Shown here: positions 2,288 to 59,158 of the stretch, piece by piece
How positions within the stretch are numbered: the first letter of the stretch is position 1
Layout of the letters: each line of letters begins with the position of its first letter
Source: Fibrobacter sp.
Lineage (GTDB): Bacteria > Fibrobacterota > Chitinivibrionia > Chitinivibrionales > Chitinispirillaceae
NCBI GenBank assembly: GCA_012513915.1
Contig: JAAZBG010000128.1
Coordinates: forward strand, 9,640-73,639
Reading direction: 5' to 3'
DNA: 64,000 nucleotides
Program-made: the position numbers and the translations under genes
Notes under the pieces: model-generated
The model's input: only the letters and a program-made list of their open reading frames with translations
What the model was told of the DNA's origin: nothing
The model's database searches: none

Positions 2288-2319
2288 AAGTATCTGAGCA
2301 CGGTATAATGTTAATTTTT

Positions 2320-2349
2320 AGGCGCAGTTGTTATTTATTGCGCCTTTTT
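2320..2349 (+). terminator. Rho-independent terminator candidate
   Basis: A 7-bp GC-rich stem aggcgca/tgcgcct (2320-2326 / 2339-2345) with a 12-nt loop is followed by TTTTT, 33 nt after the stop at 2287. Confidence 0.6.
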
Positions 2350-2386
2350 AATTGGTACATTATGCAAGAGTGATGGAGCCTTGTAT

Positions 2387-13527: not shown

Positions 13528-13619
13528 TCCGCTTAATCAAAGACCAGGTGTGATGCCGGTACTTCACAGGCGCATCTCATTGAGTTTCATGCAATCCCGG
13601 TTCAATATAAACCGTAATA

Positions 13620-13786
13620 ATCCTAAATGGCGCAGTTGGCGGGGGTGCAGAACTGTAATATATTGAGATGATAAGCTTTGAAAACCTCGCAGGCTTTATC
13701 GACGGGTGATAAGGTCAAGAGGTTTGAAACGCTTAGCGCTCAATAGATTACGGTTTTGCGCCGCGATCAACTGCGCCATTTAGGAT
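13620..13786. repeat. 167-bp rod-like imperfect palindrome with perfect 19-bp termini
   Basis: atcctaaatggcgcagttg (13620-13638) is the exact reverse complement of caactgcgccatttaggat (13768-13786). Inner segments also pair (ctgtaatatattgag / ctcaatagattacgg; aagctttgaaaacctc / gaggtttgaaacgctt). AATA flanks both ends. Confidence 0.75.
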
Positions 13787-13903
13787 AATACAGTATGGAC
13801 TACTGTGCCGGTCTGGTTAATAAAAAAGATTGAAATTGATGTGCTTGTAACATAATATATTTTCAATGTATTATTTCTTTTTATCTTTAACAGGAGTACC
13901 TCG

Positions 13904-17941: not shown

Positions 17942-18105
17942 TTAACCACAGAGAACACAGAGGACACAGAGAAAGAAAATACAAAGAGGAATTTTTACGG
18001 GTTTATATAATATTGTTTTTAAGTATGGATTGATATATAAACAATCCTAACGTAATTCATTCTCTTTTGTCTTCTCTCTGTGATCTCTGTGTCCTCTGTG
18101 GTTAA
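17942..18105. repeat. Inverted repeat whose ~50-nt arms contain tandem (A/G)ACACAGAG nonamers
   Basis: The left arm (17942-17992) is ttaaccacagag aacacagag gacacagag aaag.... The right arm (18055-18105) is its imperfect complement, ...ctctctgtgatctctgtgtcctctgtggttaa. An extra cctctgtggtt lies at 17898-17908. The element occupies the 305-bp gap between trpC and trpF. Confidence 0.85.
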
Positions 18106-37904: not shown

Positions 37905-38705
37905 TTATTTTGTAGCGTTACTGATACCTGTTAAATATTCCTTTACTGCCGGTAAACCTTTATCCATCGACATCCTGATAACATGCGAGCAGATAATCGC
38001 TATATCGGCACCGACCCGTTTCAGGTGGTTGACATCATCGGCGGACTGAACGCCGAATCCCACACCAATGGGCAGCGTAAATGTTTTTTTAACGTTGTTA
38101 ATGTACGCTTCGAATTCAGGGCCGAATTTTGTATGACGGCCGGTTGTTCCAAGACGTGCGACACAATAGATCAGGCCGCGTCCATATTGTGCAATATAAT
38201 TAAGCCGTTCCTGTGATGTAAACGGAGTGCAGAGGAAGATCGTTGCAATGTCGGTTGCATCGGCAGCCTTTACATACTCATGTGCTTCAGTTTCATCTGG
38301 TGGAAGATCCGGTATAATAATTCCCTGAATACCGCATTCTTTTGCTTTCTTAAGAAACGCTTCTTTACCATAGGCATAGATAACATTGTAATAGGTCATG
38401 ATCACAAACATTGTTGTTGGAAACGCCGATGTGATTTTTTCTGCTTCAGTAAAACACCGGGCAATAGTAGTACCGTTTTCAAGTGATTCCTGATTTGCTT
38501 TTGATAGCACTGGACCATCAGCCATAGGGTCCGAAAACGGGAACTGAAGTTCGATAATGTCAACACCGGATTCAACAAGCGTTTTAACCTGTTCGTGATT
38601 ATATGCCAGTGATGGATACCCCATGACTGTATGCGACATGACAAGCACACTCTTTGTGGTACGCCGGGCCTGAATATTTTTCTGTAATGTTGTAAGTGTA
38701 CTCAT
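37905..38705 (-). CDS. trpA: Tryptophan synthase alpha chain
   Basis: DIIELQFPFSDPMADGP, GIIIPDLP and GFG... Its start lies 4 nt after the trpB stop. Confidence 0.9.
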   Translation of the reverse strand: MSTLTTLQKNIQARRTTKSVLVMSHTVMGYPSLAYNHEQVKTLVESGVDIIELQFPFSDPMADGPVLSKANQESLENGTTIARCFTEAEKITSAFPTTMFVIMTYYNVIYAYGKEAFLKKAKECGIQGIIIPDLPPDETEAHEYVKAADATDIATIFLCTPFTSQERLNYIAQYGRGLIYCVARLGTTGRHTKFGPEFEAYINNVKKTFTLPIGVGFGVQSADDVNHLKRVGADIAIICSHVIRMSMDKGLPAVKEYLTGISNATK

Positions 38706-38708
38706 ATA

Positions 38709-39935
38709 TTAAAATGACGCTACCTTTCCTTTTAAGAAATCTTTCCACTCCTGATCATCGAATGCATCTGCAACAGTAAAGATATCCTTATCACCGCGGC
38801 CGCTCTGGTTGATCACGATGATATCGTCCTTGCCATACGATGATGCTTCCTTATAGGCTTGTGCAAACGCATGCGCTGATTCAAGTGCGGGGATAATGCC
38901 CTCTTTTGCTATTGTCAGCTTTACGGCATCAACCACCTCTTTATCCGTTGCAGCTTCAATACGAATTCGATTTTCTTTCCAGTAATGCGCAATTATCGGT
39001 GAAACTCCCACATAGTCAAGACCAGCACTGATTGAGTGCGTGTGGCGCATCTGGCCATCATTATCCTGAAGGAAAAATGATTTATAGCCCTGAACGATCC
39101 CTGGAGTTCCGTTTTTTGATGCAATACGTGATGCATGATGTGGTGTGTCAAGACCCATTCCACCGGCTTCAACGCCGACAAGGTCGACTTCTTTGTTGTC
39201 GAGAAAATCGTGCATCACCCCAAGTGCATTTGATCCTCCGCCAACGCATGCATAAATTGCTTTTGGCAGGGTTTTGTATTGGTCACGCATCTGCTTTTTT
39301 AATTCTTTTCCAATAATCGACTGAAACCAGGTAACCATTTCCGGGTAGGGATAGGCACCGCAAGCTGTTCCGATAACATAGTGGGTATCCTGAAAATTCT
39401 CTGCCCAGTCGCGCATCGCTTCATCCATGGCGTCTTTCAGCGTTTTTGATCCGCTCTGAACAGGGACAACGGTTGCACCGAGCTTCTGCATCCAGAACAC
39501 GTTGGGGTACTGACGTTCAACATCCTTGGCACCCATGTAGATCGTGCATTTAAAGCCAAATTTTGCGGCCATGGTCGCGGTTGCTACACCGTGCTGTCCC
39601 GCACCGGTTTCAGCAATAACGCGGGTTTTTCCCATTAGCTTTGTGAGAAGGCCCTGACCGATAACGTTGTTGAGTTTATGTGCACCGGTATGGTTAAGAT
39701 CCTCACGCTTAATGAGAATTTTTGCTCCGCCGAAATATTTTGTAAGGTTTTCAGCGAAGGTCAGCGGCGTCGGCCTGCAGGAATACGTTGAAAGAAGGTT
39801 TACATACTCGTCCCAGAACGACTGGTCGTTTCGAATCTTTTTATATCCCGCAATTAGATTTTCAAAAGTGTCATGGAAGATCTCCGGAATAAACTTTCCG
39901 CCAAACTCCCCGAAATACTGCTCATTAGTGTCCAT
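38709..39935 (-). CDS. trpB: Tryptophan synthase beta chain
   Basis: GEFGG.F.PE, LNHTGAHKLNN (PLP lysine), ETGAGQHG, GGGSNA and SAGLDY.GV.P. Confidence 0.95.
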   Translation of the reverse strand: MDTNEQYFGEFGGKFIPEIFHDTFENLIAGYKKIRNDQSFWDEYVNLLSTYSCRPTPLTFAENLTKYFGGAKILIKREDLNHTGAHKLNNVIGQGLLTKLMGKTRVIAETGAGQHGVATATMAAKFGFKCTIYMGAKDVERQYPNVFWMQKLGATVVPVQSGSKTLKDAMDEAMRDWAENFQDTHYVIGTACGAYPYPEMVTWFQSIIGKELKKQMRDQYKTLPKAIYACVGGGSNALGVMHDFLDNKEVDLVGVEAGGMGLDTPHHASRIASKNGTPGIVQGYKSFFLQDNDGQMRHTHSISAGLDYVGVSPIIAHYWKENRIRIEAATDKEVVDAVKLTIAKEGIIPALESAHAFAQAYKEASSYGKDDIIVINQSGRGDKDIFTVADAFDDQEWKDFLKGKVASF

Positions 39936-40222
39936 GTAGCGATCCTGCGATAAAAGTTAGGATTTTTGTATAAATTGTATAATAGATATAAACTAATTGA
40001 TTTTTGGCGGTGAGGGGGGAGGTTTTTATCTGTGATTTTATCCTCTTCAACTAAACTCTTTACTTCAAACGGTATGCACATGGAAAAAAATATCCCATAG
40101 AACAAGGGATAATAACAGGAAAACATCACTTAGAATAAGGGATATTTCTGAGGAATGTTCACCTGTTGTATCAAAAATTTACAATAAAATACCAAAATAT
40201 CATGAATTACCAGACTCTCTGT

Positions 40223-40669
40223 CTAAAAAACAATTCTCATCGGAATCATTGGCGATTTTTTCAGGTTAAACGATTCGTAAAAGTGGATTGCGATTTCGTT
40301 ATTGTAATCGGTCAGGAGTGTCACCCGAAGACAGCCGTGTTCGCGGGCATATGATAACGCATGGGAAAAGAGCTTTGATCCATACCCTTTTTTGCGATAC
40401 ATTTTACTGATAATCATATCTTCAAGCTGTGCAACTTTTCCACCGAGAAATGTACTGATCAAATACTGAAGACTTACCATGCCGATAACCTCATTGTCAA
40501 TTTCCAGAACAAGAATGTTCCCATTGTCTGATAGTAATAATGCATGTAACCCCTGAAACTGTTTTTGAGGATCAGGAGAAAATTCAAGTTCATTGGAGAA
40601 GAGTTCATTAAGGAGTTCCACCAGTACAGGCAGATCTTTTTCCTGTGCATTTCTGATTATTTCATTCAT
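40223..40669 (-). CDS. GNAT-family N-acetyltransferase
   Basis: A 148-aa protein whose acetyl-CoA motif A reads RKKGYGSKLFSHAL..A. Confidence 0.8.
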   Translation of the reverse strand: MNEIIRNAQEKDLPVLVELLNELFSNELEFSPDPQKQFQGLHALLLSDNGNILVLEIDNEVIGMVSLQYLISTFLGGKVAQLEDMIISKMYRKKGYGSKLFSHALSYAREHGCLRVTLLTDYNNEIAIHFYESFNLKKSPMIPMRIVF

Positions 40670-40977
40670 GATGTTACTTTCGAAAATAGTAGTTGTAAAA
40701 GGTAATCAATCATATCGGGATGTATTACCGACAGATCCGTTTCACTCTTTTGCTTATTTCTCTCGCTCAATTAAAAATATGATAATCGATGAGGTAAAAA
40801 CGTATATTTTCGTGCGTTTGATCAGCTGATGTCAGTCGCTTTGATAGCATTCAATTCGTATCGTATCACATGGTACCAAGCGCTAATTGATTGAAATAAA
40901 AACGTGTTATGCAAGAAACATCCATTAATTACCAGGTCAATGCTGCTCCCGTAAACACGTAGTGGTTGTGACAGAAA

Positions 40978-42291
40978 GTGCGAATTGTGATAAAAAGTAC
41001 TTTAAAAAAGCTTAGTATTGAAGCGCTTACTCCAATGCAGACTCAGGCAATGGATGCAATCTATAAAAATCGTAATACCTTCATAATTGCACCGACCGGT
41101 TCAGGAAAAACACTGGCATATCTTTTACCGGTAACAAAGATTGCAGCATCGCACAACGGAAAAGTCCAGGCACTGATAATAGTTCCATCACGGGAGCTTG
41201 CACAGCAGATACATGATGTTCATAAGTCAATGGGTACCGGTGTCAGGATGATGTGCTGTTATGGAGGACATCCAATTGACGTAGAGAAAGAGGAGTTTCT
41301 CCTGGAGCCATCAATACTTGTCGGAACACCGGGGCGGATTGCTTCACATATAGAGCATGAACGATTTGATTACTCACAAATATCAATGCTTGTCCTTGAT
41401 GAATTTGATAAATCGCTTGAATTTGAATTTATTGATGACATGACACCAATTGTTGATAAACTAACGAAACTCAAAAAACGTATCTGCATATCAGCAACAA
41501 AACTTGAATCAATTCCTGATTTTGTAAAAATGACCGATCCATGCAGTATCGAATTTACTGATGAACTAGTGCAGCCGCGTATTTCAATGAAAATTGTTGA
41601 ATCTCCTGTTCCGGATAAGCTTGACACATTGCTGCATCTAATAAAATATATAGGAAATCAGCCGGCACTGATATTCTGTAATCATCGTGATGCCGTTGAA
41701 CGGGTTATGGATTTTCTATATAAAAAGAAGTGTCAGGTAAAGATGTATCACGGGGGGATGGAGCAGGACGCGCGTGAAGAAGCACTAATGAAATTCCGTA
41801 ACGGTAGTTTTCATCTGCTGGTCACAACCGATCTGGCATCACGTGGTATTGACATTCCAGAAATACAGTATATCATCCATTATCATCTTCCATCAACAGA
41901 ATCATCCTTCATTCACCGTAATGGCAGAACCGCACGTATGCATGCGACCGGGACAGCCTTTATCATTCTTTCGGCCAATGAGCAGCTTGCGCCGTACATT
42001 TCTGAAAAACCGGTTGTTGATAAAATTTCAACCGACCTTCCACTTCCTGACAAAACGGAATGGGTGACTCTTGAACTCAATGTCGGAAAGAGAGATAAAA
42101 TAAGCAAAGGTGATATCGTTGGCTATCTGTCGCAGAAGGGACGCTTAAACAAAGACGATCTCGGTCTTGTTGAGATAACCTATCGTAATTCCTTTGCAGC
42201 TGTCAGGCGATCAAAAGCAAAGCAGGTGTTGTCACTTGTTGCAAATGAGCCATTAAAACGCAAGCTCGTGCGTATTAATGTTGATGGGTGA
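40978..42291 (+). CDS. DEAD-box-type ATP-dependent RNA helicase with DbpA-like C-terminal RNA-binding domain
   Basis: APTGSGKT, PSRELA, GTPGR, VLDEFD (a DEFD variant), SAT, TDLASRGID and HRNGRTAR. The C-terminus (GKRDKISKGDIVGYL) is DbpA-like. The start codon is GTG. Confidence 0.85.
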   Translation: MRIVIKSTLKKLSIEALTPMQTQAMDAIYKNRNTFIIAPTGSGKTLAYLLPVTKIAASHNGKVQALIIVPSRELAQQIHDVHKSMGTGVRMMCCYGGHPIDVEKEEFLLEPSILVGTPGRIASHIEHERFDYSQISMLVLDEFDKSLEFEFIDDMTPIVDKLTKLKKRICISATKLESIPDFVKMTDPCSIEFTDELVQPRISMKIVESPVPDKLDTLLHLIKYIGNQPALIFCNHRDAVERVMDFLYKKKCQVKMYHGGMEQDAREEALMKFRNGSFHLLVTTDLASRGIDIPEIQYIIHYHLPSTESSFIHRNGRTARMHATGTAFIILSANEQLAPYISEKPVVDKISTDLPLPDKTEWVTLELNVGKRDKISKGDIVGYLSQKGRLNKDDLGLVEITYRNSFAAVRRSKAKQVLSLVANEPLKRKLVRINVDG

Positions 42292-42308
42292 GTGGTTTTG
42301 GTCAAATT

Positions 42309-42447
42309 ACCCCGCAAGCGGAAACTCAATAGTAAACGTCGTACCAACGTGTTCCTCACTGTTGACACTTATTGACGCTTTGTGAATATCCAGCAGGCTC
42401 TTGACTATATACATGCCAAGGCCCGTTGATAGTTCTCCGGATGTTCC
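42309..42447 (-). pseudogene. Orphan copy of the last 46 codons of the sensor-kinase gene (direct repeat copy A)
   Basis: 138/139 nt identical to 44769-44907. It keeps an in-frame stop (TAA) and has no upstream kinase body. Confidence 0.9.
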
Positions 42448-42488
42448 TGTTTGCCCTGCAATAGTAAAAAATCATCCTTTAAGCATGC

Positions 42489-42521
42489 AGAAAACCGGGT
42501 CCGGCAAGGCGCCGTGCCCGG
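42489..42521 (-). terminator. Rho-independent terminator of the two-gene insert
   Basis: On the minus strand, the hairpin ccgggcacggc-gcctt-gccggacccgg is followed by TTTTCT, 12 nt after the stop at 42533. Confidence 0.6.
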
Positions 42522-42532
42522 AAGAATGTTGT

Positions 42533-43780
42533 TTAATGAGACTTAAGCGAAGTGACGTAAGGGTAGAGCACCAGCGCGTCGAAGACTTCTGCCGGAACGT
42601 ATACGTTGTTACTCACTCCTATTTTTTTGTTTGTAAAAGGTTCTCCGGTAAAGGGAAGATACACCGTCTGATTCGGGTAGAGGTCCGGAACAATCCTCAT
42701 GAGATCACTGGGATAGCTCTCTGCATAGGCGTCAAAATCCTTGCACGGAGAATTACTGCTAAATATCGGTATGTATCCCCGTACTGGAAGAAAGCAACCT
42801 GACCACACGCGGGACCCGTACCGTGCCTGGAGCCTTACGCCAACCCACGAACCTTCATTATCACCTACTATTGTAACGGCCTTTTTCCCTGCATGAGCGC
42901 TTCCGGAACCAACGATTACCTTTCCATACTGAGCGATAACGGATTCAATGTTCTCGGTGATCACGTCCTCTCTTAGCATATCACTTCTGTTTATCCGGCG
43001 ATGATATGATTTCACCTCGCAGGCAGTGAGCTGCATCAGCTTCGTATACCCCTCGTCCCCAAAGGATGTACGGTAGTGCGCCTCCCCGGCTTCCAAAGTT
43101 GACGCAATCTTCTCAAGAGCTTCGGGGTAGCCCTTATCCCAACACTTTCTGGGTAACGCAAAAAGTTCGGAAAAAAGCAAAGAATCCCGATAGAGCCAGG
43201 AGTCTTCAATAACTGACCAGTACACGGAATTGCTGTGATTCACATCGAAGGTTAGAAAATGGAGTCGCTCGTCTTCCGTTAAGGTTTGGTTGAACTCACG
43301 GATGGCGTCCACATACCCATACTTTGGTAACCACCGGGGGTAATCGCGCTTAAGCTGAACGTAGTCGTCAAAGATCATGCCAAGCGCGTGGTCCGTCTCA
43401 TGTACAAATGCCCTGAAGCCCGCGGCATGCAGGCGCTTAACAAACTCCGTGGTAAACAGGACATGCTCGAGGATATAGTGTTGCTCCCCAATAAAGACAA
43501 TATCATGGGCCGCAGCCGCAGCTACCAAGGTATCCGGGATGGTGTACTTGATTGAAGACGATGAGCCTACTGATGGCACGATTATGGCGGAAGCCTTGAC
43601 TGCGCTCTTGATGTGATCCACATCTTCGTAGGCACCCTTCCAGGTGATCGGGGGATAGATGTTGGTAAACTCATTATCAATGGGAAGCAGGGAATTACTA
43701 CATCCGGTAATTATAAAGAGAAAATGTGTACAAAGCATCGCTATCACGGCTCGTATCCAGTGAAAATTAATGGGTTTCAT
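42533..43780 (-). CDS. Lipoprotein, ChaN/Tiki/erythromycin-esterase-superfamily-like
   Basis: It has a lipobox (LFIITGC). The motifs IVFIGEQHY..EH and a later GSGSAH resemble the GExH...H signature of the ChaN/Tiki fold. It is GC-rich relative to its neighbours. Confidence 0.45.
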   Translation of the reverse strand: MKPINFHWIRAVIAMLCTHFLFIITGCSNSLLPIDNEFTNIYPPITWKGAYEDVDHIKSAVKASAIIVPSVGSSSSIKYTIPDTLVAAAAAHDIVFIGEQHYILEHVLFTTEFVKRLHAAGFRAFVHETDHALGMIFDDYVQLKRDYPRWLPKYGYVDAIREFNQTLTEDERLHFLTFDVNHSNSVYWSVIEDSWLYRDSLLFSELFALPRKCWDKGYPEALEKIASTLEAGEAHYRTSFGDEGYTKLMQLTACEVKSYHRRINRSDMLREDVITENIESVIAQYGKVIVGSGSAHAGKKAVTIVGDNEGSWVGVRLQARYGSRVWSGCFLPVRGYIPIFSSNSPCKDFDAYAESYPSDLMRIVPDLYPNQTVYLPFTGEPFTNKKIGVSNNVYVPAEVFDALVLYPYVTSLKSH

Positions 43781-44415
43781 AGTGCAACCCCCGCGGCGAG
43801 CCTGGCAATCAATCCATGCCCAAGGTTTGAGGAACCCTTCCAGAGAAAATCCATGGGCCGTATAGTAGTTTTTCCGCCAGACTCAACGGTTACATCCAAA
43901 CTCCCATCAAAGAATGCAAGTCCATACCCCGCCTCCGCTGCAAGGGTACAGCGTCCCCACATCCATCGCCAGCCGGCCTTCGCGTGTAAGCTGTGATAGG
44001 ATAGGTCAGTGGTTGCGGTATACGGCAATGGCTTTGTGGATTCTTTATCGGGGACATCCGCCTTAAAGGTTAATCGTGTCCAATCATACGCGAATCCTGC
44101 GTAGAGGCCCATGCGATCGTCCCGTATGTAGTTAGTAATGCCGGTCCCTATGTCGAGGTAATCTTTAACGGTCATGACCAAATGATCGTCATAGGCATTA
44201 TCTTGCTTTATGTTGATATTGGGAGAGGTTCCGCCCCTCAGTTCAAAGGCGGGTTTAAGAAAACCGATCGAAAGAGGAGGAGCGTATTCGGCGCATAGCC
44301 CAAGGCCAAAGGGAACGCCCGCACCAGCCTGAAGCCTCCACGGCTTCATCCCGGTTGGCTCCGCGTGCGCGGCAAGCGCCACTACGAGGGCAACCAGTGC
44401 AATTTTTAATGGCAT
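43777..44415 (-). CDS. Small secreted protein, outer-membrane beta-barrel candidate
   Basis: The start at ATG 44415 gives the signal peptide MPLKIALVALVVALAAHA. It has alternating beta-type segments. Its stop overlaps the downstream start (ATGA). The longer ORF to 44625 has no support. Confidence 0.5.
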   Translation of the reverse strand: MPLKIALVALVVALAAHAEPTGMKPWRLQAGAGVPFGLGLCAEYAPPLSIGFLKPAFELRGGTSPNINIKQDNAYDDHLVMTVKDYLDIGTGITNYIRDDRMGLYAGFAYDWTRLTFKADVPDKESTKPLPYTATTDLSYHSLHAKAGWRWMWGRCTLAAEAGYGLAFFDGSLDVTVESGGKTTIRPMDFLWKGSSNLGHGLIARLAAGVAL

Positions 44416-44766
44416 ACGTTTTGTATCCTTACCGTTTAGTGTGTAACTACTATACCACATCAGTATGTACATCGTATCGTTCTGATTCGCATCAATACGT
44501 GATCTCTGGCTGACTGGCAATTTGATTTTTATACTTATGGGTTCTTGAAAATAGTGATTGTATTGACCGGATACAACTGTTTTGATAAAACTTCGAAAAA
44601 GACAGCTACTGTTTATCGGGTTCAATGGCGCTTCGGTATTGCCGTTTTTATGGTCAAGCCTGATGAGTGCAAGGATTATGCTTTTGTATGTAATAAAAAG
44701 GGTGGTTTACAAAAAAGAGTTGCATTTTTTAGAATGAAAATATGTAGTTTCAATTGGTACAGGCGT

Positions 44767-46104
44767 TCACCCCGCAAGCGGAAACTCAATAGTAAACGTC
44801 GTACCAACATGTTCCTCACTGTTGACACTTATTGACGCTTTGTGAATATCCAGCAGGCTCTTGACTATATACATGCCAAGGCCCGTTGATAGTTCTCCGG
44901 ATGTTCCAACTCGTCCTGCTACCGTATACTTATTAAATATCTTACCCTTCAATTTCTCCGGGATTCCGATACCGTTATCCTTTATGGTAACAGTAAAGGT
45001 CTTCACAGATTTTTTTGTGGTTATCTCGATCGTGCCTCCGGTCCTTGAAAACTTGATAGCGTTCGAGAGCAGATTCCCGATAATCCTTTTTATCATGTCA
45101 ACATTTACACTAAGTACCGTGTCTGTATCCTGTGGTGATAGGTTGATTGAAATATGTTTCTGACGCGCAATAGGGCGGTAATGTTCAATGGTACCACTGA
45201 TTACCGGTACAATTGATGTCGTCACAAAAGTGACAGATTGACTCTGGTTTACTAATGATGCAGATTCCAGGATGTCGTTGACAATTGTCATACTGTCTTT
45301 AGCACCCTTGCTGATCAACTGAAGAAATTCAAGTGCTTTTTCAGTATCACCCTGCTGGAGTTTATCCTCAATTAATTCAACACAACTTATACTGCTCCCT
45401 ATGGTGTTGCGAAGATCGTGTGCAACGATGTGTAAAATATTATCCTTGCTTTCGATCGATTCCAATTGTGCAATTAGCGCTGCGTTTCGTGATTCATCAT
45501 AGATTTTCAGGAAATAATATAAAAATCCACCAAAGAGGAAAATGATAAAACCAGTAGAATAATTCAATCGGTTTTCGTCAACAGAATTCATTGGAATAAC
45601 ATCGAAAATGCGTAAGAGTGAAATCCCCGTTACACACAATGCATAAATCAAAATGTAAATCAGCGTAGCTTTATTGCCGGAGATAAAACTAATAAATACT
45701 GCGACAATCACCGGCCAGAGAAAAACAATTATTGATAAACTAAGGGATGAGAAGGTGCTGTTGCCGACAGCACTCAAAAGCGAGAAAATGGCTATTAACA
45801 AAACGGAGAAACTGTAATTCATATTAAACTTCAAACTTAATAGTGCAAATATTGGGATACTACTTAGTGCTATTGTAAATATAAGGATGTCCTGCCGGTC
45901 AAAGAGTACAGACATTGGTATAACAACACAAGATAGCATCAAGTAGATAAGTGCAAAGCGGAAGCACAATGAAATTTTGACTCGTTCCAACGAGTCGGTC
46001 GTGCCGGCTAATCGTTTTCCAATAAAAAACTGTTCAATTGGGCTCATAAAGTATCCTGATTGTGAATAATTATTTATAGTATAATTGTCCCGGAATTTAT
46101 GCAA
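44767..46104 (-). CDS. Membrane sensor histidine kinase
   Basis: About 6 TM helices are followed by the H-box IVAHDLRNTIGS, the N-box GNLLSNAIKF, G1 IKDNGIGI and G2 GTSGELSTGLGM. Confidence 0.9.
   Translation of the reverse strand: MHKFRDNYTINNYSQSGYFMSPIEQFFIGKRLAGTTDSLERVKISLCFRFALIYLMLSCVVIPMSVLFDRQDILIFTIALSSIPIFALLSLKFNMNYSFSVLLIAIFSLLSAVGNSTFSSLSLSIIVFLWPVIVAVFISFISGNKATLIYILIYALCVTGISLLRIFDVIPMNSVDENRLNYSTGFIIFLFGGFLYYFLKIYDESRNAALIAQLESIESKDNILHIVAHDLRNTIGSSISCVELIEDKLQQGDTEKALEFLQLISKGAKDSMTIVNDILESASLVNQSQSVTFVTTSIVPVISGTIEHYRPIARQKHISINLSPQDTDTVLSVNVDMIKRIIGNLLSNAIKFSRTGGTIEITTKKSVKTFTVTIKDNGIGIPEKLKGKIFNKYTVAGRVGTSGELSTGLGMYIVKSLLDIHKASISVNSEEHVGTTFTIEFPLAG
44769..44907. repeat. 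Direct repeat copy B (inside the intact kinase gene)
   Basis: Identical to 42309-42447 except at 44819 (a versus g). The offset is exactly 2460 bp. Confidence 0.9.
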
Positions 46105-46520
46105 CTATATTAGGATGATCCAGCGGTATTGGGAAGGTGGAGGTGTGTGGTCCATGTACGATGGAGAATCCGGAGATTGCGAAGAAACGGAGCTGGGTGA
46201 CGATGAAGTAAGCAAACGAAATGGTTAGGCCTGATATATTTTAAAACATTCAAGGATGATTCAGGTACAGTACCGGAGAACCTGTACCGTACTATAACAT
46301 TACCTGAGGAATAGAGATGTTCAGAAAAAAAATCAGATGGTATGGTCCGTCAATTAAATCCCTTTTGTTATCATGGATATTCCTGTTTGTTGCGAAAAGG
46401 TTTTTACATGGTATTGAGAAACAGGCTTTATGGGGGACAAAGAAGCCCGCAAAGAGGAAAAAAAGGAATATTCTAAAAATAACTTGATTAGTATAACAGC
46501 GCAAATCAGGGTAAGAGGAA

Positions 46521-46561
46521 CAAAATGCCCTCCCACTCTAAATCATATTAGAGTGGGAGGG
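46521..46561 (-). terminator. Hairpin terminator overlapping the radical SAM stop codon
   Basis: A 13-bp perfect stem ccctcccactcta (46528-46540) / tagagtgggaggg (46549-46561) is followed on the minus strand by cATTTTGTT. Confidence 0.6.
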
Positions 46562-47553
46562 TTAGAACCGCTGTCATCTCCTGTTAATGCCTCAGATTTT
46601 CTTTTTGTAAAATCAATGATAAACCCCTTATCCTGCTCCCCAATCTCCTGGAAAAAAACCTGAAAACCTGCATTGACAAAAGCATCCTTGACACGGTTGT
46701 ATTCATCACCGGTGATCATCCGGTTAATTTCCGGAAATGATACTGCATTGTAGAGCGGTCGATATTGTGACATAAGGCTAACGGAAATATCTGATGGATC
46801 GAAGGTCGCTTTTAAAAAGTCAAGAATCTGCAGGCTCGAATCCACCGCACCGGGAAGCACCAGATGGCGAATGCACAAACCCCGATAGGCATTATCGAAC
46901 TGATCACACCTGAGTGATCCTGTCTGGCGAAACATCGTACGTATTGCCTCGCGGTTCCGTTCAACATAATCAGGTGCTTTCGAGTATTTCGTCGCAAAAA
47001 CATTGTTGCCATATTTCATATCAGGGAGGTATATATCAATGATTCCGTTCAGTAACTCGAGAACGCTGGTGTTTTCGTAGCCGCTGCTATTATACACAAC
47101 CGGAATCGATAATCCTTTTGCGGCTGCAATTTTTAATGATGCAACGACTCTGTGCATGTAATGTGTCGATGTCACAAGATTGATATTATGGCAACCCTTG
47201 TTCTGAAGCTCAAGCATTGCATCCGCAAGTTCTTCATTGGTATACGGGCGCCCTTCATACTCATGTGATATCTGATAGTTCTGGCAGAAACAGCATTTAA
47301 GGGTACAATAAGAAAAAAACACAGTCCCGGAACCGTTGTTCCCGCTGATTGGTGGTTCTTCACCGTGATGCGGAAAAATGCTTGAAATAATCATCTGGTC
47401 CGGTGCTCCGCAGAATCCCCGTTTATTCTCAAGTCGGTTTACACCGCAATTACGGGGACATAGTGAACACGAACTGGCAATGCGGGATAATCCCGCGATT
47501 TTGTCATCCCACTCCTGAGATGAAAGATAACAATATGATGCAGTATGAGTCAT
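46543..47553 (-). CDS. Radical SAM protein, PflX-like (COG1313-type putative activating enzyme)
   Basis: CSLCPRNCGVNR....G.CG, HHGEEPPISG..GSGTVFFSYCTLKCCFCQNYQIS. Confidence 0.8.
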   Translation of the reverse strand: MTHTASYCYLSSQEWDDKIAGLSRIASSCSLCPRNCGVNRLENKRGFCGAPDQMIISSIFPHHGEEPPISGNNGSGTVFFSYCTLKCCFCQNYQISHEYEGRPYTNEELADAMLELQNKGCHNINLVTSTHYMHRVVASLKIAAAKGLSIPVVYNSSGYENTSVLELLNGIIDIYLPDMKYGNNVFATKYSKAPDYVERNREAIRTMFRQTGSLRCDQFDNAYRGLCIRHLVLPGAVDSSLQILDFLKATFDPSDISVSLMSQYRPLYNAVSFPEINRMITGDEYNRVKDAFVNAGFQVFFQEIGEQDKGFIIDFTKRKSEALTGDDSGSNPPTLI

Positions 47554-47554
47554 A

Positions 47555-47596
47555 GATTATTAATAATGAACTGTTGATTGTTAATAATGAACTGTT
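47555..47596. repeat. Tandem 21-bp direct repeat (2 units) immediately upstream of the radical SAM start codon
   Basis: gattattaataatgaactgtt (47555-47575) and gattgttaataatgaactgtt (47576-47596) match at 20/21 positions. The repeat ends 1 nt from the start codon (47551-47553) and takes the place of an SD. Confidence 0.85.
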
Positions 47597-47615
47597 AATC
47601 CCCCCTCTCCATTTT

Positions 47616-48971
47616 TTATGAAGAGGAAACCAGGGGGTGAGCCTTTCCCCAATACCGTCGTACAAGACCAGTTATTGACAAGTGCGATGCACCTGGAAAA
47701 CGCTGACGTAACACATGTTCCAGTGCATCACCGAATGCCTTTGCTGAAGCATAACGTACCGACAGATTAAGGGCCAATGACTTGTCAATAATATCACTAA
47801 TTGATTTGTCAACATGTGCTACTTTGTGAAGTGGCGTATAATTACCTGCAAGTTTTTGTGTAAAAAGAACGCCGCTGTTTCCCTGATTGAATGCACGTTT
47901 ACCAGCTATAAGTTCATAAATCGTTGCACCAAGTGCATAGATGTCAACTTGTAAATTCGGTTTGTTACCGTTGAGCTGCTCCGGTGCAAGGTAGGGAAGT
48001 GTGCCTACGATGTTGCCGGTATTTTTTGTATGTAAAGAAACTTTTTCAGGACGGGCAATTCCAAAATCGGTGAGCCTGATTCTACCATTTCTGCTGAGCA
48101 TGATATTTGCCGGTTTAAGGTCCCGGTGAATAATTCCCTTATAGGTTGTTCCGTAAATGTTAATCGTCTGAAGATGTGCATAATGTAATGCACGACAGAT
48201 AAGAATACCGGTAATGAGAGCCTGCTCTGGATTAATAAATTTACATTTAGATAATATGTCCTCAAAAGAAACGCCGTCCAGATATTCCATCTCGAGGTAG
48301 GGAAGTCCATGCCAGTCTCCAACACTGAAACATTTGACAATATTAGGATGATCCAGCTTCGCGAATATTCTGATTTCAGTTTCAAACCGCTTAAGAACTG
48401 CTTCAGGTTGATCGGGTTTGAGTACCTTTACCGCGCGATAAACTTCAAGGCGGTGGTTCCATATTAGATAAACATCTGCCATGCCGCCTGATCCAAGTAA
48501 TTTCACGATTGAACCGCTGGGGAACTCTCTGAAACGATTCACAACATCTGATTTGTCAAAAGTTATTGCTGTCGTCGGGCCATTACGCAACTTGCTGCCC
48601 GCTACGACAATTTTACCTGTAGAATTATCATCTACTTGAGAGATTATGTTTCCCCCACAAAGTTTTCGGAAGACATGGTTTGCAGAGTCAGTCTTCGGAA
48701 TAGTCTTGATAAAATCATCGTTGTCGGGTGGAACAAAAGTACCATCATCAATTTCATCTTCTAATGGTTCAAGCTGTAAGTGCGGGTTACTGTTGGTAAT
48801 TGTGGGCGATTTTTTGACAAGTACAAACCATCCCAGTAAAAAGAAAAGCGTAAAGAAATATAGTATTGTATTCCGGAAAAAATGACCGTCAGAGAAAAGG
48901 AGAACGCCAGGAATTAAGCCTATAAGGACAATCGTTGCGGTCGCAACAGCGATACCATTAAGCGGCTTCAT
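47616..48971 (-). CDS. Membrane-anchored Ser/Thr protein kinase (Hanks type)
   Basis: Two N-terminal TM helices are followed by GSGGMADVY, AVK, HRDLKPANIML, DFGIARP and GTLPYLAPE. Confidence 0.9.
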   Translation of the reverse strand: MKPLNGIAVATATIVLIGLIPGVLLFSDGHFFRNTILYFFTLFFLLGWFVLVKKSPTITNSNPHLQLEPLEDEIDDGTFVPPDNDDFIKTIPKTDSANHVFRKLCGGNIISQVDDNSTGKIVVAGSKLRNGPTTAITFDKSDVVNRFREFPSGSIVKLLGSGGMADVYLIWNHRLEVYRAVKVLKPDQPEAVLKRFETEIRIFAKLDHPNIVKCFSVGDWHGLPYLEMEYLDGVSFEDILSKCKFINPEQALITGILICRALHYAHLQTINIYGTTYKGIIHRDLKPANIMLSRNGRIRLTDFGIARPEKVSLHTKNTGNIVGTLPYLAPEQLNGNKPNLQVDIYALGATIYELIAGKRAFNQGNSGVLFTQKLAGNYTPLHKVAHVDKSISDIIDKSLALNLSVRYASAKAFGDALEHVLRQRFPGASHLSITGLVRRYWGKAHPLVSSS

Positions 48972-49021
48972 ATGACTCCTTTATTTACATAATAATCGGG
49001 TTATCTAAAACGGAATTGTGT

Positions 49022-50653
49022 TTAAATGTCAAATGAAAAATCAAACTGTATCGAATTGCCATCAATGACTGACTGCGAATTGAGCGCGATTGACAGCTCT
49101 TTTCCATTAAGAGTGACTGTAAGAGCATTTAATGGCGATATGACACCATATGGTTCAAGCTGTTTTATTAGATGCTGCTCAAGTGACGAAGCAAGAGTTT
49201 CAGGAGTCATTCCGATTCCATCAACAGCAATGAAATGTTCTGCATGTCGTATTGAACGATTAAGCAGCATATTAAACCCGATTGATGCATAGCGTTCATT
49301 ACCGGATGCATTCAGCATGACACTTGGAGCGATGATAATTCTGCCGTTTCTGATTCTGACAAAGGTGAATCCGGCTTTTGCGATTTCCCTGATCCGGTGC
49401 GGTGGAATCTGCTGCATCAGCTGATCATCAATTAATTCCGATGTTGTCAGTGATGTCATATCAAAGGGAGATCCTGTTGAAAGAAACGTCGAAACCCAGT
49501 GATCCGCAAGAATCCATGCACCACCGGCAATCAGATTATCTTTTGCGCTGCTGATATGCAATGATGGGCCGCATAATGCTATCGAACGTGCAGCGCTCTC
49601 GTTACGTAAACAATCAATTGCTGCATCAATTGTTTGATGATCACCGATCGTCTCTACAGATACAATCCGTTCAAAATAGAGATCATCCTGTGCCAGGCTT
49701 GTCCATACCATTGAACGTGCAGCGTCTGCGATCGCTGCTGTTTTGTGTAGTGTGTCAAGTGTGTCAATATCAAGATGATTGTTTTCGTAGCTTAAAAGGA
49801 CAATGTCGGGTGCGTTACCATCATTTACAAGTGATCCGAGCGCAGATTGATAATGCTCAAATGCATTGTCAGATGCACTACTGTAAAGGTATACCTCAAA
49901 CAGTTTACTGCGGCCCATCTTCTTTAAGAGATTACGCAACGCATACCACGATGATGCAATCGTGGAATAATGTGATGATGATCTCAATGCTGCTGCAGTT
50001 TTATCTATTGTGTCAGCAAGCAGAAGCTGAACCTTCGAAAGCTGATTTATTCTGTATCCCGGGTTGTTGCTGTCATCTCCCAGAACGTTAATCAGTTGCT
50101 CCAGTGGTGATGTCTGTGGTGTACCGGTATCGATCATCGACATGATTGAATCGGCAAAGGATCCGCTATTCTGAGGTGTGCTCTGTGGCTTGACTTCAGC
50201 ACTCAGAGCAATCACGATCTGTTGTTTCAGCGGTGATGCAAGTTCCAGTGCCCTGATCTTCGTCGCTGCATCACTGGATGACACCTGTTGTTTTGCGACA
50301 CTGTCAACAATTGCCTTTGCGTCTATAAGCGATTTTGTCGTCTGGCAATTCTGAAGTATCAATTCTTCAGAAAAGTCGCTTAAAGCCACGATGTTTGATA
50401 AAACCGTAAATGGCTCGATAAATTCCGGGAGCCCCTGAGCAACGCGACCCTTTATTTCAACGTTGCAGCTCTTTAAAAAGTCCTGTATTGTCCCTGATGA
50501 AATAAACTGAGGCTGCTGACTTACATACCCAAAGTCTCCACATACTAATAAAACCCATGGTTTTATCTCTTTTGGCCGGGATGATGGACTATTTTGCAGG
50601 TGTGCACCGAGGCTTACGCTCGACGTCTGAATGAGTGATTCTTCCTGGGACAT
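49022..50653 (-). CDS. Hypothetical protein resembling a fused TssB(VipA)/TssC(VipB)-type contractile sheath subunit
   Basis: The ORF itself is solid. The N-terminus (KPWVLLVCGDFGY...IQDFLKSCNVEI...ALSDFSEELI) parallels the TssB pattern. The C-terminal part (REIAKAGFTFV, GFNMLLNRSIRHAEHFI....G....LE..L, and the ending ..SIQFDFSFDI) parallels TssC. The assignment comes from remembered family patterns only. Confidence 0.4.
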   Translation of the reverse strand: MSQEESLIQTSSVSLGAHLQNSPSSRPKEIKPWVLLVCGDFGYVSQQPQFISSGTIQDFLKSCNVEIKGRVAQGLPEFIEPFTVLSNIVALSDFSEELILQNCQTTKSLIDAKAIVDSVAKQQVSSSDAATKIRALELASPLKQQIVIALSAEVKPQSTPQNSGSFADSIMSMIDTGTPQTSPLEQLINVLGDDSNNPGYRINQLSKVQLLLADTIDKTAAALRSSSHYSTIASSWYALRNLLKKMGRSKLFEVYLYSSASDNAFEHYQSALGSLVNDGNAPDIVLLSYENNHLDIDTLDTLHKTAAIADAARSMVWTSLAQDDLYFERIVSVETIGDHQTIDAAIDCLRNESAARSIALCGPSLHISSAKDNLIAGGAWILADHWVSTFLSTGSPFDMTSLTTSELIDDQLMQQIPPHRIREIAKAGFTFVRIRNGRIIIAPSVMLNASGNERYASIGFNMLLNRSIRHAEHFIAVDGIGMTPETLASSLEQHLIKQLEPYGVISPLNALTVTLNGKELSIALNSQSVIDGNSIQFDFSFDI

Positions 50654-56709: not shown

Positions 56710-56834
56710 AATTGTTGCGGTAATAAAAAACAGACTTTTTTATTGACATTAACCATGTTTGTTGATAAAAATAGAATATATACAATTATCAGAAATGTGT
56801 ATTTGTAAATCGACAGGTGAAGGTAACGGGTACG

Positions 56835-57902
56835 ATGAATATTCTAAGCAAAATTAATCCTCAACGATCGACAGTGGGTCTGGATATTGGAAACCACTCC
56901 CTGAAACTCGTTAAATTGATTCATCAGAAAAATGGTTACTTTCTTGAAGCAACGGGGATAAAAGAACTTCCTCCGGGTACGATTGAAGGAACAGATATAA
57001 AAAAGAGGGATGTGCTTATTGATTCCATTAGTAAACTTGTCAATCAGTGTGATCCCGACATTACCGATGTCGTTATTGCAATGGCCGGGCACAGTATAAT
57101 CTCTGATAAAATAACGTTCAAGAATGAGACCGATGAGGCTGCCGAGGAGATGATACTCTGGGAGGCTGGGCAGCGAAGTCCTTTTGATGTTGATGATATT
57201 ACGCTTGATTATAAAATTCTTCATCGAAGAGTTGATGCCAACGAGATGGAAGTACTGCTCGTTGCTGCAAAAAACGATATCATGAAAAACTATATCGATC
57301 TGGTGTATGAGGCACATCTCAGACCGGTAATTGTGGATGTTGACGCGTTCGCAATTAATAACTGTTATGCCCTTGAAACTGCAGATATGCCACAGGATGG
57401 TGTCACGGCTCTGGTAAACATCGGACATGATCTCACCAACGTAACATTCATAAAAGATGGTATTTATCACTCGACAAGAGACATTTCAACTGCAGGTGAC
57501 TATTTTAATAAAATACTTCAACGGAATCTCGGATTAAGTCCCGAAGATGCTGCCATGTTAATTAAAGGAAAAAATACTACATCGTTTGACAATAGTAAAT
57601 TTCAGCAAAGCATCGAATTCGCCGCAGAAGAGATGTCTTCAGGAATTGATCTCGCATTTTCGTATTTCAAAAGTTCGACTAAAAGTGACATGATTGACAG
57701 AATAATATTGTCGGGTGGCGGGGCATATATTCCGAATATTATCGATTTTCTGGCGAAACGTCATCAGACAACTGTTCAGGTATCAAATCCACTTGCATTT
57801 CTGCAGTACGATCCTGGACTATTCGGTAATCTTGAACCAGAGAGTATTTCTGCTCTGCTGACTGTTGCTGTAGGACTCGCATTACGGAAAGTGGATGATT
57901 AA
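56835..57902 (+). CDS. pilM: Type IV pilus assembly protein PilM (actin-like ATPase fold)
   Basis: GLDIGNHSLKLV, VDVDAFA and ILSGGGA. The start is either ATG 56835 or GTG 56817. Confidence 0.85.
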   Translation: MNILSKINPQRSTVGLDIGNHSLKLVKLIHQKNGYFLEATGIKELPPGTIEGTDIKKRDVLIDSISKLVNQCDPDITDVVIAMAGHSIISDKITFKNETDEAAEEMILWEAGQRSPFDVDDITLDYKILHRRVDANEMEVLLVAAKNDIMKNYIDLVYEAHLRPVIVDVDAFAINNCYALETADMPQDGVTALVNIGHDLTNVTFIKDGIYHSTRDISTAGDYFNKILQRNLGLSPEDAAMLIKGKNTTSFDNSKFQQSIEFAAEEMSSGIDLAFSYFKSSTKSDMIDRIILSGGGAYIPNIIDFLAKRHQTTVQVSNPLAFLQYDPGLFGNLEPESISALLTVAVGLALRKVDD

Positions 57903-58565
57903 ATGATTGAACGCATAGAAATTAACCTGTTGCCGGCAGAATACCGGTTTCACAAAAAAAAGTTCAGGATTCATCGGGAGATGGTCTATCCGCTGCTTGG
58001 TGTGATACTTACAGGTGTAGTACTCGTATTCTGGACGTTGTTTCAGGAAAATTCGATCAGTTATAATAATGGTCAGATTAAATTTCTTTCACAGCAGATC
58101 GATCAGAACAGGCCTATACAAAACGAGATTAATAAACTGCGCTCTGAAAAAACGGCCATACAGGAAAAGATCAGAGCTCTGGAAAGAATCAGTGTCAACC
58201 GCGAGAAATGGGTCAAGCTCATGGAGGAACTGTCCGGAAGGTTGCCGCAGTATACCTGGCTGTTGTCAGTTAAAGAAGAGAATACGATTCCTCCTGTATT
58301 GTCAATAGAAGGCAGAACGTATTCTTTTCCGGAGGTTGCCAATTATATGTCAAACCTTAAGGATAGCAAGTATGTAAGCTCAGTCGGTCTTACCGATATT
58401 GAACGGTTGAATTCAAAAGATAATGTATACAGGTTCTCAATAACATGTGTATTGAATCAGGATGTAAATCTGGTTCCTGTTCACAATGAACCGGTTCAGG
58501 CTGCATCCGCAAAAAGCTCGAAAGCCGGTTCTGGTGGAAGCGCAGGAAAAAAGACAGGTAGATAA
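57903..58565 (+). CDS. pilN: Type IV pilus assembly protein PilN
   Basis: The INLLP motif (EINLLPAEYR), one TM helix and a coiled coil. The start abuts the pilM stop (TAAATG). Confidence 0.85.
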   Translation: MIERIEINLLPAEYRFHKKKFRIHREMVYPLLGVILTGVVLVFWTLFQENSISYNNGQIKFLSQQIDQNRPIQNEINKLRSEKTAIQEKIRALERISVNREKWVKLMEELSGRLPQYTWLLSVKEENTIPPVLSIEGRTYSFPEVANYMSNLKDSKYVSSVGLTDIERLNSKDNVYRFSITCVLNQDVNLVPVHNEPVQAASAKSSKAGSGGSAGKKTGR

Positions 58566-59158
58566 TGAAAAAGAAATTCGATTTAAAAGATCCGAAATAC
58601 AGAATTCCGATATTGTTAATTATCATCGGTATTGGAATGATTGCGACATGGTATTATTATGTTTATGCACCAAATCTTGAAAAAATCAACCAGCTTGAAC
58701 AGAAGGTGAAGGCAAAACAGGATACATTACGGACAATTCAGGCACTGAAACCTCAATTGAATATGCTTCGTGAAGAGCTGCAGCTTGCGGAGAATAAGCT
58801 TGATTCTTTAAAGTCAATATTCCCGGATCACAAGGAAATTCCGAGATTGATCAGAGAAATAACAAGTGTTGCACGGGCTACGGGTATAACAACAACAAAG
58901 TTTAATCCCATGCCGGATGTAGAGAAAGAATACTATGTTGAAAACCATTACAATATCGCTGTCAGCGGAGGCTATCATCAATTGGCCGAGTTCTTTGCCT
59001 TTCTTGCAAATTTTACACTGATAATTAATTTGTCAAGTATGCATATTACGACAAATCCTGAATACGATCCGGTTCCGGTAACGATGGGAGCTGTAGAAAA
59101 CGGTGGTGAAACAATCGTTTCACAATTTGAAATGACAACCTTTTCATCGAAAAAATGA
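58565..59158 (+). CDS. pilO: Type IV pilus assembly protein PilO
   Basis: A TM helix, a coiled coil and a ferredoxin-like C-terminus. It overlaps pilN by 1 nt (TAATG). Confidence 0.8.
   Translation: MKKKFDLKDPKYRIPILLIIIGIGMIATWYYYVYAPNLEKINQLEQKVKAKQDTLRTIQALKPQLNMLREELQLAENKLDSLKSIFPDHKEIPRLIREITSVARATGITTTKFNPMPDVEKEYYVENHYNIAVSGGYHQLAEFFAFLANFTLIINLSSMHITTNPEYDPVPVTMGAVENGGETIVSQFEMTTFSSKK

Follow-up and report, generated by a model that had tools for sequence, protein, structure and literature searches.

Most integration hot spots in bacterial chromosomes are without any recombinase. The closest described class to the locus analyzed here is the insertion with long target duplication, the molecular mechanism of which has, to our knowledge, never been established. 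Insertions of this class carry target duplications of 46 to more than 400 bp, contain no mobility genes, and were found mostly in competent species (PMC2853133). The criteria for the class were those of Furuta, Abe and Kobayashi 2010 (PMC2853133), and the class was also described by Nobusato et al. 2000. Two observations on transformation are also relevant. Mosaic donor and recipient patches arise from single transformation events (PMC13344027), and transformation can trigger duplications by interchromatid pairing (PMC3784515).

The locus was analyzed in a stretch of 64,000 nucleotides from Fibrobacter sp., hereafter the 64-kb window. Features of the locus were compared with the same position in related genomes and with the described systems.

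Two copies of a kinase 3' end around a two-gene insert

Direct repeats at 42309-42447 (copy A) and 44769-44907 (copy B) differed at one of 139 positions (138/139) and were spaced 2460 bp apart, and the insert between them was 2321 bp long. The identity and spacing agreed with the first-pass annotation. However, the lone mismatch, given there as 42359/44819, was off by 10 and is located at 42349 (g) and 44809 (a). The longest exact run within the repeat was 98 nt, compared to a maximum of 16 nt in the shuffled region 38001-50000 (n = 20). A 40-nt probe from the repeat matched just two copies within the 64-kb window, with 0 expected by chance, and no other long repeats were present in the window. 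Among the genome, metagenome, and viral collections searched, no further copies of the 139-mer were found beyond this locus and its orthologues.

Copy B, on the minus strand, forms the functional last 46 codons of a sensor histidine kinase gene (44767-46047, minus strand; 426 aa as annotated, NLD92958.1). This gene encodes Pfam HATPase_c and HisKA domains and is both the left-hand flank and the target gene; its ORF extends to 46104 (44767-46104). As claimed earlier, repeat identity starts at the first base of the kinase stop codon, which is a non-native TGA (44767-44769).

Copy A, also on the minus strand, is an orphan duplicate of these 46 codons, followed by the native stop and downstream flank. 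It lies 17 nt beyond the stop (42291) of a DEAD-box/DbpA RNA helicase gene and ends in an in-frame TAA (42307-42309), so the earlier description of this fragment was reproduced. The helicase gene (40978-42291, plus strand; Pfam DEAD, Helicase_C, and DbpA) is the conserved right-hand flank, convergent on the kinase, and was syntenic in loci L004, L008, L088-L093, and L098. The native 17-nt spacer between the helicase stop and copy A (42292-42308) includes the second and third bases of the orphan TAA and aligns with the empty-site spacer of L004 and L008.

Two minus-strand genes overlapping by ATGA were confirmed between the repeats. Cargo gene 1 (42533-43780) encodes a 415-aa predicted lipoprotein with the lipobox ITGC, which appears to be distantly EreA/ChaN/Tiki-like. 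Its Pfam Erythro_esteras match was sub-threshold (E = 1.6e-5; 25.3 bits versus a cut-off of 26.4), its comparison with HopBA1 in the PDB gave E = 0.51, and there was no NCBIfam match. The nucleotide identity of this gene to L005 and L006 was 71-72%, and the homologue in L095 gave a weak ChaN match (E = 0.008). The AF2 model, with a pLDDT of 33, was unusable. Cargo gene 2 (43777-44418) encodes a 213-aa secreted protein, or 227 aa from the alternative start at 44460, and is a candidate outer-membrane beta-barrel. It had no Pfam match, and its homologue in L095 gave a weak OMP_b-brl match (E = 0.0025). No RM or defence matches were obtained in the cargo, and a ChaN or haem-uptake role is at most thinly indicated by these similarities.

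A candidate intrinsic terminator of the cargo operon (42489-42521, minus strand) consists of a hairpin and UUUUCU. The hairpin had been pointed out at first reading and folds at -22.2 kcal/mol (z = -2.4); a simple consensus terminator scan did not call it. On the other side, an AT-rich orphan spacer (44461-44766; 36% GC) extends from cargo gene 2 to the kinase stop. This spacer presumably carries the cargo promoter; its promoter-like matches were all weak, and no homologue of it was found in the fetched loci.

The cargo showed 50% GC and GC3 values of 0.54-0.55 (0.548 for gene 1 and 0.537 for gene 2), compared to 41-42% GC in the flanks and GC3 values of 0.33-0.47 in host genes. The insert had been described as GC-rich, which holds for the cargo, including the example of 43381-43440 (36/60 G+C). 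However, it does not hold for 44419-44766, which lies within the insert and is AT-rich at 36% GC. The sole cargo homologues found (65-66% amino acid identity) occur, again as a pair, in genomes of 61% GC, where neither the kinase nor flanking repeats accompany them, and the cargo genes were absent from every other lineage recovered. The outlier composition, the absence from other lineages, and the restriction of homologues to 61%-GC genomes support a foreign origin of both genes, in line with the initial proposal. The locus thus records the recent passage of genes from high-GC bacteria to an uncultured Fibrobacter lineage.

The same spot in relatives and the edges of the repeat

In other species of the genus, the kinase is directly convergent on the helicase, which corresponds to an empty site. 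Such sites, which the first-pass annotation had suggested looking for, were found in L004, L008, L088, L089, L090-92, and a contig from SRR24010766, and the stops of kinase and helicase are 9-123 nt apart in them. L004 and L008 have a single kinase end, then the spacer and the helicase.

A single kinase end was also present in the sister strain L093/L094 (~97-98.6% nucleotide identity), whose 2.1-kb insert at this spot is a different one and comes with no kinase duplication. This insert lies after TAATTTG, without a kinase-end repeat, and contains, besides a 168-aa gene and a GNAT fragment, a gene for an AbiLi-like ATPase (PADLOC E = 1.7e-65). On the best reading of these sequences, the kinase-helicase intergenic region would be a strain-variable insertion hot spot. 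Gene remnants, namely a GNAT fragment and a hydrogenase 3' end, were observed near the insertion spot.

The two copies differ in what adjoins them. Copy A shares TAA and TTTG with L093/L094, its TAATTTG being identical to the kinase end there, and shares the spacer with L004. The stop of copy B is TGA, a difference of one base from TAA. The copy B block itself matches L093 at every position (139/139). A 16-nt patch at its 5' edge (44908-44923, minus strand) abuts the repeat exactly and shows six substitutions relative to L093 and L004, all of which equal the base in the distant congener L098. The order at copy B is native sequence, L098-like patch, native-type block, and non-native stop. This sandwich is not explained by a single simple crossover, so an extra step such as conversion or mosaic repair would be needed. 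The patch could also be an unrelated allelic import that merely limits the identity.

Past copy A, the kinase homology is weak and covers about 19-24 nt (42448-42471, minus strand), close to the ~25 nt of faint similarity noted before. This decayed extension forms the right junction of the insert and reads FFTIAGQTG, compared to KYTVAGRVG in the kinase. A near-invariant Arg is changed to Gln in it, and a TGA in frame stands just upstream (42472-42474). The extension keeps the native ACT ATT, as in L093 and L004, yet has 4 changes in 18 nt. At the far junction (~42466-42471), no extended homology to the cargo side was seen.

These comparisons favour the view that copy B, the functional kinase end, arrived with the insert and that copy A would be the displaced native end. 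The earlier suggestion of an insert carrying a replacement kinase 3' end is consistent with the native TAA, TTTG, and spacer at copy A and with the TGA and L098-type patch at copy B.

Origin of the duplicated kinase end

Our main reading, with a probability of roughly 0.55, is that a strain-variable hot spot captured, through host recombination, DNA that brought along a kinase 3' end. The captured DNA would be a strain-specific, horizontally acquired 2.3-kb islet, composed of two co-transcribed envelope-protein genes, a terminator, and an AT-rich leader, that entered without a dedicated recombinase. Its kinase 3' end may have paired with the resident kinase by host homologous recombination, and the far end may have been attached ~160 nt before the resident stop codon, through homology that was short or imperfect. 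Because of this position, the resident 3' end would have been displaced rather than replaced and would survive as the orphan copy A beside the helicase. The kinase would now finish in the incoming copy B, which results in an insertion with long target duplication. The identical 139-bp core could reflect mosaic exchange from the start or later homogenization by gene conversion, and the repeat edges, too diverged to convert, would retain their separate origins.

The repeat, the foreign composition, the empty sites, the other cargo in the sister strain, the native flank of copy A, the non-native edges of copy B, and the lack of a detected recombinase domain are observations, whereas the order of the events, a role for host recombination, and conversion of the core are inferred. 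Against this capture, the copy B sandwich needs an additional step beyond one crossover, the stops of the two copies differ by just one base, the patch could be an unrelated import, and the 4 changes in 18 nt of the copy A extension are many if the event was recent. The donor arrangement of kinase homologue, AT-rich leader, and cargo was not found in any collection searched.

An assembly artefact, in the form of a chimera or collapsed repeat made by the assembler, is scarcely credible. Contigs L002 and L003 do end inside copy A and may derive from the same reads. However, the window, L001, and L002/L003 all give one order, and the same structure in other metagenome assemblies argues that the repeat is not an artefact. 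L001, a SPAdes contig from a different sample, spans both copies and differs from the window over 3839 nt at one site only, the site distinguishing copies A and B (42349/44809); L001 thereby carries a perfect 139/139 version of the repeat, as would be expected if the copies had exchanged sequence. The k = 141 contig L003 runs through the kinase, the whole block, and the insert, which needs reads across the entire repeat. A plain insertion, in which incoming DNA held no kinase sequence and the insertion process duplicated ~160 nt of the resident end by staggered breaks or unequal interchromatid joining, is a real but unlikely alternative. In its favour, each repeat aligns to a sequence present once in the empty sites, and mobility genes are lacking (cf. 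PMC2853133). The left junction lies at the stop codon, as selection would be expected to favour given the gap of only ~15 nt between the convergent stops. On this view, the 44908-44923 patch and the TGA would have to be unrelated changes. However, all six edge substitutions of copy B are L098 bases that abut the repeat exactly, which points to imported alleles rather than junction errors. Furthermore, the copy B stop is unlike the native stop, and the copy A extension should equal the native sequence but carries the changes described above.

Mobile-element explanations were weighed on the same evidence. A transposon or insertion sequence was rejected, as no transposase domain was detected in the 64-kb window, terminal inverted repeats are absent from the insert ends, and the duplication is at least 139 bp rather than of short fixed length. 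A CIME-like non-autonomous element, with the kinase 3' end as att and a tyrosine or serine recombinase supplied from elsewhere in the genome or by a helper element, seems quite improbable. Elements of this type are classically recognized by direct repeats of a gene 3' end together with an element-borne replacement that keeps the ORF whole; in addition, an integrase acting in trans could be encoded by one of the nine long ORFs in the 64-kb window that had no Pfam match, or elsewhere in the genome. However, Pfam searches of the insert and of every window ORF of at least 150 aa gave no recombinase or transposase domain, which bears out the initial remark that no integrase is present. The 139-mer occurs nowhere else in the collections searched, and the cargo pair in other genomes has no linked integrase. 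The L093/L094 insert at the same spot lacks an att-like duplication, and the alleles at the repeat edges are mosaic, with no one clean att-type switch. Nothing positive was obtained for the analogy to tRNA-targeting islands and CIMEs that had been drawn at first. It is very unlikely that the 2460-bp unit is a homology-addressed cassette needing no recombinase, which repeatedly loops out as a circle by RecA recombination between the 139-bp repeats and, once transferred, re-enters the kinase gene of other cells by one Campbell-type crossover. The kinase gene would always be restored on re-entry, the repeat core would stay identical, and the unselected extension would decay. The identical core with decayed or mosaic edges and the perfect repeat in L001 agree with this cycle, of a type hypothesized for RM units that have long flanking repeats (PMC2853133). 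However, the unit was found in one lineage only at ~100% identity, no circle junction, second host, or second address was found, and a single historical event accounts for the data equally well. If true, this cycle would be a natural one of invasion, amplification, and release, so far only hypothesized for repeat-flanked RM units, and would account for hot spots filled without integrases.

Comparison with known systems

By its architecture, the locus matches the insertion with long target duplication, a known class, and is fairly ordinary. Furuta et al. defined an insert below 20 kb with direct repeats above 30 bp (here 2321 bp and 139 bp) and required that a relative without the insert have one copy of the target to which both repeats align, as is the case for L004 and L008. 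Mobility genes in or beside the insert and a dispersed repeat were to be absent, and neither was found in the 64-kb window and the collections searched. RM cargo, a criterion of their survey and not of the structure, is lacking here. Since the architecture agrees with these published criteria (PMC2853133), the "undescribed capture mechanism" offered in the first-pass annotation is unneeded.

The locus resembles the published cases in its short insert, in repeats of tens to hundreds of bp, and in a composition unlike the host; some published repeats also overlap a gene 3' end (PMC2853133). Unlike those cases, which were screened for and defined by RM cargo, this insert encodes two envelope proteins, and Fibrobacterota is not among the published host phyla. 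Here, the repeat edges also show imported kinase alleles, which suggests homology to the target within the incoming DNA.

Integrase-borne islands and their integrase-less derivatives, the CIMEs, occupy the 3' end of a tRNA or protein gene. They are alike in that the repeat equals the target 3' end, the target remains whole, and the far junction retains an orphan end. They are unlike this locus in its 139-bp identity block, its mosaic edges, and the other insert at the same spot without a repeat. Neither a recombinase (insert and 64-kb window) nor a cognate element on the same att (no other 139-mer locus) was found, and the site specificity expected of such elements, other insertions with the same duplication, was not seen in L093/L094.

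Homology-facilitated illegitimate recombination and transformation outcomes would share with this locus one homologous anchor, here putatively the kinase, and one non-homologous or microhomology junction (PMC3240628, PMC13344027, PMC3784515). Donor and recipient patches alternate near the junction in these outcomes, and duplications are possible. A kinase-side anchor is suggested by the imported alleles at 44908-44923 and the TGA stop. Classical homology-facilitated illegitimate recombination deletes or replaces recipient DNA, whereas the anchor is duplicated here.

The locus is otherwise an ordinary strain-specific islet whose cargo function is uncertain. It offers a compact natural series, in which sister species have the empty site, a sister strain has defence cargo, and the present allele has repeat edges with parental traces, and this series suggests that homology on the incoming DNA, not a dedicated enzyme, directed the insertion. 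Hot spots and defence islets between core genes are similar, as one intergenic position here holds nothing, an AbiL-like defence pair, or an envelope pair. Most such hot spots are recognized by gene content only, whereas here one allele also duplicates the end of the flanking gene.

The duplicated kinase end

The direct repeats at 42309-42447 (copy A) and 44769-44907 (copy B) were 139 nt long, identical at 138 positions and separated by 2460 bp from start to start. The first-pass annotation had given the same identity and spacing, and its coordinates for the single mismatch (42359/44819) were 10 nt off; the actual positions are 42349 (g) and 44809 (a). The longest exact run was 98 nt, compared to at most 16 nt in shuffles of the surrounding 12 kb. 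The repeat occurs only twice in the window and is the sole long repeat in the 64 kb. Based on this and on repeat scans of further sequence collections, the concern that the 139-mer might be a common dispersed repeat was rejected. Copy B forms the final 46 codons of a minus-strand histidine-kinase gene (HATPase_c, HisKA). Copy A lies 17 nt past the stop of the convergent DEAD/DbpA helicase gene (40978-42291, plus strand) and has an in-frame TAA at its end.

The possibility of an assembly artefact, also raised at first, was examined with independent contigs. Three further metagenome contigs encode the exact 415-aa cargo protein. The SPAdes contig L001, from a different sample, carries the kinase, insert, orphan copy and helicase together and differs from the window at one base in 3839. 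The MEGAHIT contig L003 (k = 141) extends from the kinase across the complete block to the insert, so that its assembly required reads covering the whole repeat; the contigs L002 and L003 may come from the same reads. The agreement of several assemblies, including the k = 141 contig across the whole block, makes an artefact extremely improbable.

The sole difference between L001 and the window falls at the site that tells the copies apart (42349/44809). Read along the kinase strand, both copies carry C in L001; in the window, copy A carries C and copy B T. The closely related contig L093 and all outgroups have T at this site, except L004, a locus of another species, which has C. This single-site pattern fits gene conversion between the copies, and a point mutation might also have produced it.

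Three smaller repeats were observed elsewhere in the window. Two intergenic inverted repeats (13617-13789 and 17942-18105) have arms of 51-52 nt that lie 60-71 nt apart and are 82% and 75% complementary, respectively. A 21-nt unit (GATTATTAATAATGAACTGTT) occurs twice in tandem at 47555-47596, between radical-SAM and Ser/Thr kinase genes.

Anatomy and origin of the insert

Counted from the kinase stop on the minus strand, the first 300 nt or so of the insert (42448-44768) are AT-rich (36% GC). The gene for a 213-aa secreted protein (43777-44418) follows and overlaps by ATGA with that of a 415-aa predicted lipoprotein (42533-43780). A hairpin, a U-run and a decayed stretch of kinase sequence some 20 nt long then lead into copy A. 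Searches of the fetched loci with the AT-rich leader gave no match, either as nucleotides or in translation. A 'TTGAAACTA / CTACATAT' motif that this leader seemed to share with the sequence downstream of the kinase in the related loci L087, L098 and L093 was considered and dismissed, as it was not significant against shuffles. No structured RNA was found by Rfam in 41500-46500 (E <= 1), and the window contains no tRNA or tmRNA genes.

Both cargo genes have GC3 values of 0.54-0.55, compared to 0.33-0.47 in 31 host genes. A collection of 5.8 billion clustered proteins contained only two other clusters with relatives of the lipoprotein, at 65-66% identity. These relatives belong to the same two-gene pair (71-72% DNA identity), which in 61%-GC genomes is flanked by leuS and a chromate-transporter gene and has neither a kinase nor a flanking repeat nor an integrase alongside. 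From the GC3 deviation and the restriction of relatives to 61%-GC genomes, the cargo is concluded to be foreign to a lineage of about 41% GC, in line with the foreign origin proposed in the first-pass annotation. No relative of the cargo was found in viral contigs or among PLSDB plasmids, and the 41-nt repeat core was likewise absent from viral contigs. Only sub-threshold matches were obtained, to EreA/ChaN/Tiki for the lipoprotein and to a beta-barrel for its partner. An AlphaFold2 model of the lipoprotein from a three-sequence alignment was unusable (pLDDT 33.5). A role in haem or iron uptake would be a guess.

Variation at the kinase-helicase locus

Protein annotations assign the window to a Fibrobacter sp. 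MAG. The empty site anticipated earlier, with the helicase directly convergent on the kinase, was present in several relatives, where the kinase end lies 9-123 nt from the helicase stop. It was found twice independently in another species of the clade at 88-93% nucleotide identity (L004, a Fibrobacteres MAG, and L008). It was also found in three more distant congeners (L088/L089, L090-L092 and a Logan contig from SRR24010766). An exact look-up of the helicase protein, aimed at same-strain empty sites, returned no record. In the distant congener L098, one small gene separates the kinase from the helicase, and L087 is without the helicase.

The kinase of L093 has more than 90% amino acid identity to that of the window, and the flanking sequence matches at 96.8-98.6%, which makes L093 effectively a sister strain. 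L093 carries a different, AT-rich insert of 2.1 kb between the kinase and helicase stops (L093:2766-4907). Its genes encode an AbiLi/AriA-like AAA ATPase of 409 aa (PADLOC E = 1.7e-65; Pfam AAA_21), a 168-aa partner and a GNAT (Acetyltransf_3) fragment. The kinase end is not duplicated at this defence-type insert. In L094, from another sample, the insert starts in the same way (L094:2930-3021). A 753-aa ORF without a Pfam match, followed by an HTH-WYL-WCX regulator, was observed at 26-3316 of the window; this arrangement is frequent near defence genes.

Variation extends to the region upstream of the kinase. L004, L087, L088 and the SRR24010766 contig contain a 5.6-kb hydrogenase/SpoIIE/Rex cluster, whose place is taken by a sigma-54 two-component pair in L090/L091. 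The window (~46125-46215) and L093 retain a decayed remnant, about 90 nt long and with deletions of 2 nt and 5 nt, of the 3' end of an [FeFe]-hydrogenase-like gene. Across the contigs compared, the locus is a strain-variable hot spot. In the sister species, only some 120 codons of the kinase 3' end remain, and these contain a 2-nt insertion (L004:10060-10422, L008:3841-4203); the gene is dispensable in that lineage. The window and L093 differ at 19 positions in the helicase gene, 10 of which are packed into 124 nt (41412-41535), probably a short recombination patch.

Native and non-native ends, and the probable route of insertion

The last 200 nt of the kinase gene were compared column by column across both window copies and six relatives, eight sequences in all. 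The kinase end GGG-TAA-TTTG of L093 and L094 is exactly that of copy A, which runs on into the spacer as in the L004 empty site; copy A therefore holds the native stop and flank. Copy B has a TGA stop followed by unrelated DNA. The window kinase read through copy B has six differences from L093 within 16 nt (44908-44923), and the adjoining 323 nt upstream and 139 nt downstream show none. L098 has the window's base at all six, so these are imported alleles rather than junction errors. No paralogous template for this patch was found inside the window. At the same positions, the short extension of copy A retains the native ACT ATT found in L004 and L093. Four further changes set it apart, one of them replacing a near-invariant arginine with glutamine, and an in-frame stop lies just upstream. 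Neutral decay alone was judged insufficient for this extension because it would need 4 changes in 18 positions beside 1 in 139 in the block, yet four-fold-site divergence between the window and L004 is only 7-30%. The 139-nt block is, in both copies, an allele specific to the window/L093 clade, and about 24 of its positions differ in L098. By this comparison, copy A is native on both sides and copy B non-native on both sides, with a native-type core common to both.

The most economical reading, with a probability of roughly 0.55, is host-recombination capture of DNA bearing its own kinase 3' end. The incoming DNA would have brought the AT-rich leader and the cargo together with the kinase 3' end of a different lineage, and would have paired with the resident kinase. 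Its far end would have joined about 160 nt ahead of the resident stop, and the resident kinase end would have been displaced rather than replaced. The identical core could be a mosaic result of the original event or the product of later conversion, with the diverged repeat edges beyond its reach. Mosaic patches of donor and recipient DNA within single transformation events (PMC13344027) and transformation-triggered duplications (PMC3784515) have been shown experimentally. The window contains a type IV pilus machinery cluster (PilM-PilN-PilO, an SH3-domain protein and a secretin; 56817-62369), which may be relevant to DNA uptake. A donor arrangement of kinase homologue, AT-rich leader and cargo was not found in the collections searched.

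Plain target duplication would give the same bracketed insert and leave the six L098-type bases as an unrelated patch, and we consider it unlikely. A CIME-like element moved by an integrase acting in trans is a poorer candidate: the L093 insert is without the repeat, the repeat edges are mosaic, and, as initially reported for the insert, no recombinase was found. Integrase, resolvase and transposase domains were detected neither in the insert nor in any window ORF of at least 150 aa; nine ORFs had no Pfam match. Less probable still is a RecA-dependent 'homology-addressed' cassette that cycles repeatedly.

The locus fits 'insertion with long target duplication', a class defined by an insert below 20 kb, repeats above 30 bp that both match a single target in a relative lacking the insert, and the absence of mobility genes (PMC2853133). 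All of these structural features were found here. The class was described for restriction-modification systems in Helicobacter, Haemophilus, Neisseria, Campylobacter and others, with repeats of 46 to >400 bp and a mechanism that is still unknown (PMC2853133). In contrast to those cases, the present cargo is not a restriction-modification system, the host belongs to a different phylum, and there is evidence that the incoming DNA itself bore the target homology.
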